DNA of 64,000 nucleotides. Source: Escherichia coli (GTDB lineage Bacteria > Pseudomonadota > Gammaproteobacteria > Enterobacterales > Enterobacteriaceae). Shown piece after piece: positions 5,556-26,248 of this stretch. The translations under genes and the position numbers were made by a program. How positions within the stretch are numbered: the first letter of the stretch is position 1; every line of letters starts with the position of its first letter. The stretch lies in assembly GCF_003334765.1 (NCBI RefSeq), contig NZ_QOWT01000002.1, one strand, 5' to 3'. Under the pieces are notes generated by a model. It was not told where the DNA came from. It searched no databases and saw only the letters and a list, made by a program, of their open reading frames with translations.

Positions 5556-5630
5556 GTCCTCTTAGTTAAATGGATATAACGAGCCCCTCCTAAGGGCTAA
5601 TTGCAGGTTCGATTCCTGCAGGGGACACCA
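5556..5630 (+). tRNA. argW: tRNA-Arg (anticodon CCU)
   Basis: GTCCTCTTAGTTAAATGGATATAACGAGCCCCTCCTAAGGGCTAATTGCAGGTTCGATTCCTGCAGGGGACACCA; cloverleaf with CCT anticodon and 3' CCA. Confidence 0.95.
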
Positions 5631-5631
5631 T
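5616..5631. repeat. attL core: 16-nt direct repeat CTGCAGGGGACACCAT at 3' end of argW
   Basis: Identical 16-mer recurs at 26233..26248. Confidence 0.7.
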
Positions 5632-5791
5632 TTATCAGTTCGTTCCCATCCGTACTTGTCCGCAAAATCCCCTGAATATCAAGCCTTCCGTAGATTCACA
5701 GTTCGTAATGGTTCGCGTCAGATCGTTGACAGCCGCACTCCATGACGGGTAAAAAGTGGATAAAATAATTTTACCCACCGGATTTTTACCC

Positions 5792-6949
5792 ATGCTCACC
5801 GTTAAGCAGATTGAAGCAGCAAAGCCGAAAGAAAAACCATACCGCCTTCTCGATGGTAATGGCCTGTACCTTTATGTCCCTGTGTCAGGGAAAAAGGTAT
5901 GGCAGCTTCGCTACAAGATTGACGGTAAGGAGAAAATCCTGACCGTCGGAAAATATCCGCTTATGACTTTGCAGGAGGCAAGGGATAAAGCATGGACCGC
6001 GAGGAAAGACATCTCGGTTGGCATCGATCCGGTAAAAGCGAAAAAGGCTTCGTCTAACAACAATTCCTTTAGCGCCATTTACAAGGAATGGTACGAGCAC
6101 AAGAAGCAAGTCTGGTCAGTAGGCTATGCAAATGAACTTGCAAAAATGTTTGATGACGACATTTTACCCATCATCGGCGGCCTTGAAATTCAGGATATTG
6201 AGCCGATGCAACTTCTTGAAGTAATCCGCAGATTTGAAGATCGCGGTGCAATGGAACGAGCCAACAAAGCACGCAGAAGATGCGGCGAGGTTTTCCGTTA
6301 CGCTATTGTCACCGGAAGGGCTAAATATAACCCGGCACCTGACCTTGCTGACGCCATGAAGGGATACCGCAAGAAGAACTTCCCGTTTCTTCCTGCAGAC
6401 CAGATCCCGGCATTCAACAAAGCACTGGCAACATTTTCAGGAAGTATCGTATCGCTCATTGCGACCAAGGTTTTACGCTACACAGCCCTCAGAACAAAAG
6501 AGCTTCGTTCCATGCTATGGAAGAACGTCGATTTTGAAAACAGGATTATCACCATCGACGCCAGTGTGATGAAGGGACGCAAAATTCATGTGGTTCCTAT
6601 GTCAGACCAAGTGGTTGAACTTCTCACTACGCTAAGCTCAATAACCAAACCAGTCTCAGAGTTTGTTTTTGCCGGGCGCAACGATAAGAAGAAGCCAATC
6701 TGCGAGAACGCGGTACTGCTTGTGATCAAACAAATCGGCTATGAAGGTCTGGAAAGCGGTCACGGATTCAGGCATGAATTCAGCACGATTATGAACGAGC
6801 ACGAATGGCCTGCCGACGCCATTGAAGTGCAACTTGCACATGCCAACGGCGGATCTGTGCGCGGTATTTACAACCATGCTCAGTATCTCGATAAGCGCAG
6901 AGAAATGATGCAGTGGTGGGCGGATTGGATTGATGAAAAGGTGGAGTGA
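5792..6949 (+). CDS. intS: Tyrosine integrase IntS
   Basis: ORF 5756..6949; recognised IntS sequence probably starting at MLTVKQIEAAKPKEK (5792); C-terminal catalytic R..HGFRH..Y motifs. Confidence 0.9.
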   Translation: MLTVKQIEAAKPKEKPYRLLDGNGLYLYVPVSGKKVWQLRYKIDGKEKILTVGKYPLMTLQEARDKAWTARKDISVGIDPVKAKKASSNNNSFSAIYKEWYEHKKQVWSVGYANELAKMFDDDILPIIGGLEIQDIEPMQLLEVIRRFEDRGAMERANKARRRCGEVFRYAIVTGRAKYNPAPDLADAMKGYRKKNFPFLPADQIPAFNKALATFSGSIVSLIATKVLRYTALRTKELRSMLWKNVDFENRIITIDASVMKGRKIHVVPMSDQVVELLTTLSSITKPVSEFVFAGRNDKKKPICENAVLLVIKQIGYEGLESGHGFRHEFSTIMNEHEWPADAIEVQLAHANGGSVRGIYNHAQYLDKRREMMQWWADWIDEKVE

Positions 6950-7141
6950 TCCGCCTTAACAACTATCGAATATCACAAAGCCTTGTAATCCAGTGCAAAG
7001 CTTTGTGTACCTTAGTTTTGTCTCATAGGTAATTCTGCTTTAACTGCGATGTAGGAATCTGTCACCAGACGCACGTCTCGTTGTTTTATGGTTTTCCGTT
7101 CATGATTAATATGTTAGCTTGTCAAAGTTTGTGTTTAAGAT

Positions 7142-7813
7142 ATGGTGATTGATGCAATGTTAAGCGTTCAGATGACTCCACAAGCAAAAGTTAGCTTCGA
7201 GGAGCAATGTTTTTTTCATGCTTCAGGTCTTGTTGTTGCCCCAATAAATGTTGGAGCATTCTCCTACTTTGGCGCTAATTGTATGCTCGGCGGCTTTACG
7301 ATGGGTAGATTCTGTTCAGTTGCTCCAGGAGTAAAAATTGGCCTTGGCGAGCATGAAACTGGGTATTTTTCTACGCATCCTTTTTTCTTTGGCTCAAAAA
7401 ATGGTTTTAAAATCCCTGATGGTATAGGAATGCAACGCGACCTCTCTCAACAGAAGCATGGTATACCAAGAATTGGTCATGACGTATGGATAGGTGCAAA
7501 TGCGGTTATCAGGCGAGGTATAACTATTGGTACTGGCGCTGTTATTGCTGCTGGCGCTATTGTCACCAAAAATGTCGAGCCATATTCAATCGTAGGTGGC
7601 GTTTCTGCAAAACACCTAGGGTACAGATTTGAGGAATCAATCATCAAAGAGTTACTGGATAGCCAATGGTGGGAATATGATTTAAGCTCATTTATTGGGA
7701 TTGATACAAGGACACCGACGACTTTTTTAGAGCAGTTTAATGCTGTAAAAGATAAAAAGAAGGCATCTTATAAGAGATTTACAATTCTTCCATCCGGTGA
7801 AATTGTTGAATAG
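7142..7813 (+). CDS. Hexapeptide-repeat acetyltransferase, XAT family (CatB/Vat-like); prophage cargo gene
   Basis: HPFFFG..., [43 protein letters not shown]...RF.E..I..LLD..WW tracks the CatB pattern; start codon uncertain (7142/7157/7172). Confidence 0.65.
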
Positions 7814-7832
7814 CGCATCCCTGCGCTATATT

Positions 7833-25891: not shown

Positions 25892-25916
25892 AAGCCGCCT
25901 GATGGCGGTTTTTTAT
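25892..25916 (+). terminator. Rho-independent terminator (AGCCGCC-TGAT-GGCGGTT + T-run)
   Basis: GC-rich hairpin followed by TTTTTTAT. Confidence 0.7.
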
Positions 25917-25924
25917 TACCTGAT

Positions 25925-25940
25925 TTGCAGGTTCGATTCC
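25925..25940. repeat. Internal partial argW copy TTGCAGGTTCGATTCC (T-arm segment)
   Basis: 16-nt identity with 5601..5616 of argW, located upstream of torI. Confidence 0.6.
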
Positions 25941-25959
25941 CTATTCGGAGATAGCACTC

Positions 25960-26160
25960 ATGCAACACGAACTACAGCCTGATTCACTGGTTGATTTGAA
26001 ATTCATCATGGCCGATACTGGCTTCGGTAAAACCTTCATCTATGACCGGATTAAGTCCGGCGACCTGCCAAAAGCCAAAGTTATCCACGGGCGAGCAAGA
26101 TGGTTATATCGTGACCATTGTGAATTCAAAAATAAGCTCTTAAGCCGCGCCAATGGGTAA
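25960..26160 (+). CDS. torI: TorI: recombination directionality factor (excisionase) and TorR inhibitor
   Basis: 66 aa MQHELQPDSLVDLKFIMADTGFGKTFIYDRIKSGDLPKAKVIHGRARWLYRDHCEFKNKLLSRANG; recognised. Confidence 0.85.
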   Translation: MQHELQPDSLVDLKFIMADTGFGKTFIYDRIKSGDLPKAKVIHGRARWLYRDHCEFKNKLLSRANG

Positions 26161-26232
26161 AATAGCGGGTAAAATATTTCTCACATCTAAAAAACACCAT
26201 TCCAATCAATCCCCTGCCGCTTCAAGTAGATG

Positions 26233-26248
26233 TCTGCAGGGGACACCA
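26233..26248. repeat. attR core: 16-nt direct repeat CTGCAGGGGACACCAT
   Basis: Identical to argW 3' end at 5616..5631. Confidence 0.7.

Follow-up and report, generated by a model that had tools for sequence, protein, structure and literature searches.

The 64,000-nucleotide stretch of Escherichia coli contig NZ_QOWT01000002.1 (assembly GCF_003334765.1) analyzed here, referred to below as the window, carries a phage-derived element of 20,618 bp, counted with one copy of its attachment core, at the 3′ end of the tRNA gene argW. It is flanked by yfdC and argW on the left and by dsdC-dsdX on the right, as around CPS-53/KplE1 in E. coli K-12. From left to right, the element consists of attL, intS, an acetyltransferase gene, a tailspike gene, ant, sar, arc, mnt, two genes for secreted proteins, and gene 16; then a gene 20 pseudogene, a fusion open reading frame (ORF), O, hkaW, cII, cro, the OR operators, cI, and hkaS; and finally OL/pL/nutL, N, the early-left genes, the ea genes, torI, and attR (Table 1). 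This is the order of an integrated HK620/Sf6/CUS-3-type phage, and it matches HK620, N7, and P22 throughout. Genes were annotated using PHROG, Pfam, and NCBIfam scans, combined with tblastn searches with every HK620 and P22 protein. The element is of a known kind, a Lederbergvirus remnant with a KplE1-type recombination module, the immC region of HK620, and the immI region of P22. It is very probably a recently decayed Lederbergvirus prophage, a mosaic of P22-, HK620-, and Sf6-like parts, and we found nothing that contradicts this structural account.

The boundaries are sharply defined. With up to one mismatch allowed, the window holds exactly two copies of the 16-nt core CTGCAGGGGACACCAT that forms the argW 3′ end, and no copies are expected by chance (100 shuffles); a third attachment copy, or tandem elements, were thereby ruled out. 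The first-pass annotation had proposed a P22-like prophage at argW between 16-nt direct repeats, and the tRNA, the KplE1 core, and the Lederbergvirus gene order bear this out. The two repeats and the position of the left one also stand, but the right copy lies at 26234-26249 instead of 26233-26248.

The recombination module has the layout described for KplE1, with the core duplicated at the argW 3′ end, intS transcribed away from attL from a promoter inside attL, and torI, which encodes the recombination directionality factor, at the opposite end by attR. The published KplE1 module has the same 16-nt core and the same arrangement of the two genes, excises in vivo, and is conserved in HK620, Sf6, and CUS-3 (PMC2951348; PMC3509656). 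Finding int at one end and torI at the other is what the published descriptions of this module lead one to expect and no anomaly, because the HK620/Sf6/CUS-3-type attP lies between int and the xis-like gene. IntS is identical to K-12 IntS at 383 of 385 amino acids (aa) and 98.2% identical to HK620 Int, and the promoter-proximal 80 nt of attL differ from K-12 by one base. At 5726-5792, the arm repeats of HK620 attP and its ‘prophage excision’ promoter recur with 100% identity, and so does the HK620 arm repeat at 26154-26176. Given the identity of TorI (100%) and IntS (99.5%) to the K-12 proteins that served in published excision assays, both in vivo and in vitro, excision would be expected to depend on IntS, TorI, and IHF.

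The late-regulation, lysis, packaging, and head genes are missing through a deletion that can be mapped to the base pair. In the 460-aa fusion ORF, the first ~227 codons of a primase/helicase gene run in frame into a full-length gene 7; PHROG profiles match residues 2-228 to DNA primase/helicase and residues 230-458 to the ‘DNA ejection’ protein gp7. Blastn against GF4, N7, and HK620 detected a single break at 16189-16193, and a base-by-base three-way alignment with both parental sequences placed the junction at 16190/16191. The primase/helicase parent matches up to GGCGTTA, the gene 14/gene 7 parent matches from TAGCCATG, and 2 bp (TA) are shared; the 5-bp overlap suggested by blastn was rejected on this inspection, which left only the TA microhomology. 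In strain C41, which has the same O/primase module, primase codon 229 and the start of gene 7 are ~20.4 kb apart, including an IS100 of ~1.9 kb; therefore, ~18.5 kb has been lost from the element in the window. Added to the 20.6 kb that remain, this gives ~39 kb, a typical P22-like genome size.

The missing functions agree with the map. Tblastn with all HK620 and P22 proteins found no homologue anywhere in the window of Q, holin, endolysin, or Rz; of terminase, portal, scaffold, or coat; of gp4, gp10, gp26, or gp14; or of P/gp12 and the nin genes. Thus, the Lederbergvirus head and packaging set (terminase, portal, scaffold, coat, 4, 10, 26, 14) is absent through the mapped deletion, and the complete replication, late-regulation, lysis, packaging, and head functions of a plaque-forming phage are not present. 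By gene content, what is left is part of a Lederbergvirus and not the whole of one. The first-pass annotation had likewise called it defective and devoid of portal, coat, terminase, lysis, and Q genes; both statements are upheld, and every called gene has phage homologues. The genes it did list are all present (PHROGs; tblastn with HK620 and P22 proteins), with two amendments. Gene 20 of the ejection set is a frameshifted pseudogene, and gene 7 is fused in frame to the start of the primase/helicase gene, so that the helicase/primase is truncated while O and the replication origin (ori) remain.

The second lesion, in gene 20, is a 286-bp deletion between 7-bp direct repeats (ACATGGA) with its junction at 14654-14662. 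It shifts the frame and splits the PHROG matches of the pseudogene into profile positions 1-277 and 421-509. In two sister contigs, from GCA_965137835.1 and ERR11457625, which match the window at 100% across 19-21 kb, gene 20 is undamaged and encodes 471 aa; a third, from SRR3951470, is 100% identical with the 286-bp deletion included. Because the fusion occurs together with an intact gene 20 in the first two, the large deletion preceded the gene 20 deletion. Both deletions are very recent, with no substitutions in ~21 kb among the sister contigs.

Could the deletions be assembly artefacts that conceal an intact prophage? This is barely credible. The junction is indeed found in none of the 5426 complete E. 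coli genomes, but an exact-protein look-up in draft and Logan assemblies recovered the same 460-aa fusion protein from at least 10 public contigs that belong to different assemblies, among them GCA_965137835.1 and two Sequence Read Archive runs. The junction also lies outside repeated DNA, with 2 bp of microhomology only, and SRR3951470 provides a separate instance of the gene 20 deletion. On this comparison, both lesions are real and not assembly artefacts.

The present structure very probably arose in three events. IntS-mediated site-specific recombination into the argW 3′ end duplicated the 16-nt core, leaving intS by attL and torI (xis) by attR. An illegitimate deletion of ~18.5 kb at the 2-bp microhomology then joined primase/helicase codon ~227 to the start of gene 7. 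With it went the remaining helicase sequence, the nin region and Q, the lysis cassette, the genes for terminase, portal, scaffold, and coat, and genes 4, 10, 26, and 14. Later, the 286-bp deletion between the 7-bp direct repeats frameshifted gene 20.

Outside these lesions, two complete control modules survive. The immC region carries the same repressor and the same OL and OR operators as HK620, with 237 of the 238 residues of CI (99.6%) identical; the repressor combines a helix-turn-helix (HTH) domain with an S24 autopeptidase. Directly downstream of cI, at the position of lambda rexAB, lies a homologue of HkaS, a very hydrophobic small protein that is a candidate prophage-expressed membrane protein. 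The immI region is that of P22, with mnt, divergent Pmnt and Pant promoters with their operators, arc, the antisense RNA sar, and ant.

Table 1. Attachment sites, genes, and regulatory sequences of the argW element; positions refer to the window.
Feature	Position	Strand	Support
argW, tRNA-Arg(CCT); 3′ end is the integration target	5556..5630	+	ARAGORN; Rfam tRNA 63.4 bits; K-12 argW position
attL core, 16 nt, argW 3′ end	5616..5631	+	Matches published KplE1 core (PMC2951348) and HK620 attP core
attL arm overlapping intS promoter, with IntS arm-type and TorI sites	5632..5791	+	96% identity to K-12 attL
intS, tyrosine integrase, 385 aa, intact	5792..6949	+	phrog_1 integrase 3.8e-81
Hexapeptide-repeat O-acetyltransferase, 218 aa; predicted lysogenic-conversion gene	7157..7813	+	Pfam Hexapep
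Hairpin, terminator-like, between convergent acetyltransferase and tailspike genes	7810..7829		
Tailspike, gene 9 analogue, 788 aa, intact	7833..10199	-	Pfam Head_binding 2.4e-65; PDB matches
Terminator-like hairpin by ant	10263-10282		
ant, antirepressor, 292 aa	10300..11178	-	phrog_245 5.6e-112; C-terminal 171 aa 85% identical to P22 Ant
sar, antisense RNA of immI	11180..11246	+	Rfam RF00262, 65.6 bits (gathering score 43)
arc, repressor, 53 aa	11247..11408	-	52/53 identical to P22 Arc
Divergent Pant/Pmnt with Arc and Mnt operators	11420..11476		DNA identical to P22; promoter-like matches on both strands
mnt, repressor, 84 aa	11499..11753	+	81% identical to P22 Mnt; Pfam Repressor_Mnt on identical gene of GCA_965137835.1
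Secreted Rap1a/Tai4-family protein, 111 aa, sieA slot	11750..12085	+	Pfam Rap1a 1.3e-14; phrog_3870, function unknown
Secreted protein, 129 aa, sieA slot	12101..12490	+	phrog_2651, function unknown; no Pfam match
Gene 16, ejection protein, 613 aa, intact	12515..14356	-	75% identical to P22 gp16 over full length; phrog_770 7e-280
Gene 20 pseudogene, frameshifted	14353..15482	-	Alignment with phage N7 gene 20
Fusion ORF, 460 aa, primase/helicase 1-~227 in frame with full-length gene 7	15493..16875	-	
O, replication initiator, 286 aa, containing ori	16983..17843	-	phrog_277 O-like; Pfam Phage_rep_O on identical gene
hkaW/orf48 homologue (DUF2740)	17836..17982	-	100% identical to HK620 HkaW
cII	18017..18295	-	97.8% identity to HK620 CII
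pRE	18272-18311		100% identical to HK620
nutR	18352-18397		100% identical to HK620
cro, 64 aa	18404..18598	-	100% identical to HK620 Cro
OR1-OR3 and pR	18621..18694		All 100% identical to HK620 annotation
cI, repressor, 238 aa, intact	18705..19421	+	Pfam HTH_3, Peptidase_S24
hkaS homologue, small membrane protein	19441..19809	+	95.9% identical to HK620 HkaS; hydrophobic sequence
tIMM, OL1-OL3, pL, nutL	19891..20069		All 100% identical to HK620
N, antiterminator, 98 aa	20177..20473	+	phrog_271 4.7e-35; 92% identical to HK620 N over residues 3-64
Early-left genes, whole block	20482..23706	+	PHROGs; gene calls and Pfam on identical GCA_965137835.1 sequence
156-aa ORF (early-left)	20482-20952	+	
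HNH/AP2 endonuclease (early-left)	21165-21677	+	
cIII, 44 aa (early-left)	21677-21811	+	
kil (early-left)	21796-21948	+	
102-aa ORF (early-left)	22033-22341	+	
recT (early-left)	22338-23240	+	
Gp157/Gam-like (early-left)	23224-23706	+	
ea region: 104-aa ORF, DUF2737, DUF7739, Ead/Ea22, EaA-like, EaG	23718..25828	+	
torI (xis), recombination directionality factor, 66 aa, intact	25960..26160	+	100% identical to K-12 TorI and HK620 HkaC
attR arm	26154..26233	+	98% identity to K-12 attR
attR core, pawZ-like duplicated argW 3′ end	26234..26249	+	Repeat search; K-12 comparison

The virion genes that remain are those of a Lederbergvirus. Genes 7, 20, 16, and 9 lie in P22 order, the tailspike has a P22 head-binding domain, and the best DNA matches are Lederbergvirus genomes; compared to P22, identity is 94% for gp7, 86% for the N-terminal part of gp20, and 75% for gp16. 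Replication is represented by O with an ori of four lambda-style iterons, TGTCACCnnnnnGGTGACA, at 17404-17490 beside a T-rich tract. Judged by their reading frames and sites, the cI/cro switch with its operators, immI, N, kil, cIII, recT, and O with ori are intact, as are IntS, TorI, attL, attR, gene 16, the tailspike, and the acetyltransferase gene.

From this inventory, the behavior of the element in a lysogen can be predicted. CI would repress pL and pR, silencing the element and conferring immunity to phages of HK620 immunity, while the acetyltransferase gene and the genes for small secreted or membrane proteins next to mnt and cI are putative conversion or exclusion genes expressed from the prophage. 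Upon SOS induction, CI self-cleavage would derepress pL and pR and turn on N, kil, recT, and torI, and TorI together with IntS could excise the element as a 20.6-kb circle. The excised circle, with no helicase/primase, would not replicate, and neither lysis nor particles would follow. Induction would thus be predicted to end in curing or Kil-mediated growth arrest and not in phage production.

An element with an integrase, a directionality factor, a repressor, an antirepressor, and an initiator with ori, but no structural head genes, at 20.6 kb about half the length of a P22-like genome, might instead be a phage satellite, i.e., a mobilisable island resembling the phage-inducible chromosomal islands that uses the capsids of a helper P22-like phage. 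We regard this as very improbable. To the left and right of its one break, which falls inside the primase gene, the sequence follows ordinary P22-like genomes collinearly at 95-100% identity, so its gene set is not one of its own. It retains virion genes that would be useless to a satellite (7, 16, 9, and the gene 20 pseudogene), and its helicase/primase is truncated. No small terminase gene, pac region, or capsid-size redirection gene was found in it; the pac site of P22 lies in gene 3, which is deleted here.

The element is best placed by comparison with its relatives. HK620 shares the recombination module (Int 98%, HkaC/TorI 100%, identical attP arm sites), immC (cI 99.6%, cro 100%, cII 98%, with all operators, promoters, and nut sites identical), the overall gene order, and gene 7 (97% identical). 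However, HK620 is a viable 38.3-kb phage, whereas the element in the window is without everything from P through gene 14. Its replication module, with O and a toprim primase/helicase, differs from that of HK620, RecT and Gp157 replace Sak4 and SSB, and immI is complete where HK620 has only remnants. HK620 also differs in tailspike specificity and has an O-antigen polymerase-like gene in place of the acetyltransferase gene. P22 shares immI (Arc 52/53, Mnt 81%, Ant C-terminus 85%, identical Pant/Pmnt DNA, and the sar RNA) and resembles the element in gp16 (75%), gp7 (94%), the tailspike head-binding domain (74%), and the placement of a conversion gene between the tailspike and int. In contrast, P22 uses another integrase and attachment site with int and xis adjacent, has another immC (C2 40% identical), and carries gtrABC and sieA where the element has the acetyltransferase gene and two genes for secreted proteins.

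The third comparison, with CPS-53/KplE1, bears on how the element came to this chromosome. Outside the element, the window differs from K-12 MG1655 in 8 places over 43 kb (99.98% identity), two in 1-5631 and six in 26250-64000. These include YfdF S72P, MlaA F169L, YpdF L241P, and YpeD H10Y/S11N, as well as one synonymous change in evgS and two intergenic ones (27349, 45148); the first 78 bp of IS186C (63923-64000) are at their K-12 position. The source strain and K-12 are very closely related but have different occupants at argW. CPS-53 uses the same argW-dsdC site, the same 16-nt core, and the same intS-attL/torI-attR layout, and both elements are defective. Nevertheless, divergence from K-12 starts directly inside the cores (first difference 5643, last 26218), and the two share only 5616-7026 (attL and intS; IntS 383/385, attL 96%) and 25910-26249 (torI and attR; TorI 100%, attR 98%), being unrelated between 7026 and 25910. 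CPS-53 is 10.2 kb long and carries gtrABS (yfdGHI); the element in the window has an acetyltransferase gene and no yfdGHI, and, unlike CPS-53, a complete cI/cro switch, immI, ejection genes, and a tailspike. That the cargo differs from that of K-12, as had been noted at first pass, is thereby borne out. According to the literature, CPS-53 lacks a repressor and does not respond to SOS induction. The distribution of the differences from K-12 is consistent with argW having been occupied independently, by site-specific recombination, in a K-12-like clone. Cassette exchange with CPS-53 by homologous recombination through the int and torI ends is unsupported on the left side, where a crossover within attL or intS is unlikely because differences from K-12 begin 12 nt past the core (5643); the right end is too similar to K-12 for this to be judged there.

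The cargo next to intS consists of an acetyltransferase gene and a tailspike gene. The acetyltransferase (alternative starts at 7142 and 7208) is of the left-handed beta-helix (hexapeptide) type and occupies, between intS and the tailspike, the slot held by gtrABC in P22, neuO in CUS-3, and gtrABS in K-12. It scores 97-100 bits against CatB/Vat-like NCBIfam models with equivalog cut-offs of 300-350 and is related to these resistance families without being a member; its PGAP label in GF4 and AH21A060 is ‘CatB-related O-acetyltransferase’. Its closest solved structures are xenobiotic acetyltransferases, NeuO being remote. Apart from Gram-positive Vat-like genes, tblastn found it in none of 50,697 phage records (E <= 1e-5), and it occurs in ~10 of the 5426 complete genomes, adjoined by a tailspike in 8 of the 10.

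The tailspike joins its P22 head-binding domain to a pectate-lyase-like beta-helix (Pect-lyase_RHGA_epim) and a C-terminal S74-like chaperone domain (weak Peptidase_S74 match) that resembles the self-cleaving chaperone of endosialidases and of the T5 L-shaped tail fibre. Among the 50,697 phage records, the best match to its receptor-binding part (7833-9830) is Escherichia phage PSK1, with 54% amino acid identity. AH21A060 carries the same acetyltransferase-tailspike pair (20158-23200, 99.5%), its tailspike gene being equal in length and 99.5% identical in DNA, within a P22-like prophage that looks complete, adjoins ybhB/bioA, the lambda attachment region, and has a different integration module; therefore, the pair is an exchangeable mosaic module. 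From its position and its linkage with the tailspike, we infer that the acetyltransferase modifies the tailspike’s receptor.

The nearest precedent for such a pairing is CUS-3, which integrates at the same argW site with the same recombination module and has a hexapeptide-family O-acetyltransferase gene between int and a tailspike with a C-terminal chaperone domain. By analogy, the arrangement may serve to ‘modify the receptor the tailspike recognises’. The acetyltransferase of CUS-3, however, is NeuO, encoded on the opposite strand, the tailspike in the window is not an endosialidase, and the window lacks an AAGACTC tract. A NeuO-like phase-variable acetyltransferase was considered and rejected: the match to the NeuO structure 3jqy (7.7e-5) covers ~45 residues, tblastn found no match to the acetyltransferase in CUS-3, and neither the AAGACTC heptanucleotide nor any other tandem repeat was found in or before the gene. 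The close NeuO similarity and 5′ heptanucleotide tract of NeuO-type genes are thus both lacking.

In the slot of sieA, between gene 16 and mnt, are the genes for the two secreted proteins, both with signal-peptide-like N-termini. Rap1a is an immunity family against Tae4 amidases of type VI secretion systems (T6SS), and the 111-aa protein also weakly matches Tai4 structures. They might serve as exclusion factors in the periplasm or represent orphan immunity genes against T6SS. PADLOC called no defence system among ten accessory proteins, with a weak homing-endonuclease match for the HNH protein. The gene for the latter, which resembles HNH_3/AP2 homing endonucleases, lies between N and cIII, where HK620 and P22 carry other genes. 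In the ea region, the EaA-like product joins a dATP/dGTP pyrophosphohydrolase to DUF551.

These genes invite the idea that selection has kept the remnant as a ‘defence and surface-conversion island’ and that it is not junk, which we consider improbable. If it were so, the sieA-slot proteins would act in the periplasm, protecting from T6SS peptidoglycan amidases or, alternatively, blocking the periplasmic gp20/gp16 conduit of superinfecting P22-like phages. Likewise, the XAT-like acetyltransferase would modify the polysaccharide recognised by the rare tailspike, and the in-frame primase′::gp7 product would have acquired a role of its own.

A less specific form of selection deserves more weight. 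Remnants of this sort recur at argW. GF4, O15_8X, and CH468 carry elements at the same site with the same ends and a central deletion of late, lysis, and head genes, and GF4 also shares its acetyltransferase-tailspike and O/primase modules with the element in the window. The junctions are independent (dam′::gp26′ in GF4, gp26′::N′ in O15_8X, and a gp4′ fragment adjoining cro in CH468), and the primase′::gene 7 junction is found in none of the three. Together with K-12, this makes at least four independent central deletions, all of which keep the torI end; the GF4, O15_8X, and CH468 remnants also keep intS with the tailspike. The recurrent pattern may or may not reflect selection. It could mean that the prophage has been domesticated, with the host keeping cI immunity, Ant, the exclusion or secreted proteins, the acetyltransferase, and perhaps the tailspike, and with selection favouring deletions that remove lethal late genes. 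The preservation of the torI end in all four of these other P22-like remnants and of the intS/tailspike end in GF4, O15_8X, and CH468 agrees with this possibility, as do the full length of all genes outside the two lesions and the presence of the fusion-bearing element in at least 10 assemblies.

Domestication nevertheless seems unlikely to us. With no substitutions over 21 kb among the sister contigs, the element is too young for its open reading frames to inform on selection. Gene 20 is already gone, and in the absence of a capsid genes 7, 16, and 9 would serve no evident purpose. Moreover, neutral decay combined with the purging of lethal genes also gives central deletions that spare the ends.

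Three points qualify this account. The distribution of the fusion junction comes entirely from draft and Logan assemblies, the complete E. coli genomes being devoid of it, and none of the 5426 covers at least 80% of the element. The nearest characterised relatives of the acetyltransferase are xenobiotic enzymes (CatB/Vat) and not known polysaccharide O-acetyltransferases. Finally, immunity, SOS derepression, excision, the failure to replicate, and action of the acetyltransferase on surface polysaccharide are inferences from the sequence identity to modules that have been characterised.

For practical purposes, annotation pipelines should class the element as defective, and the strain is predicted to be immune to HK620-immunity phages. 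The rare acetyltransferase-tailspike pair may serve depolymerase mining or the study of serotype conversion. The finding brings no new principle and would not surprise a phage biologist; its value is that of a clean, dated example. The sister assemblies freeze two stages of decay, the ~18.5-kb deletion alone and the same deletion with the 286-bp loss in gene 20, and the flanks, 99.98% identical to K-12 around a different argW occupant, show that the prophage at one attachment site has turned over across a very short evolutionary distance.

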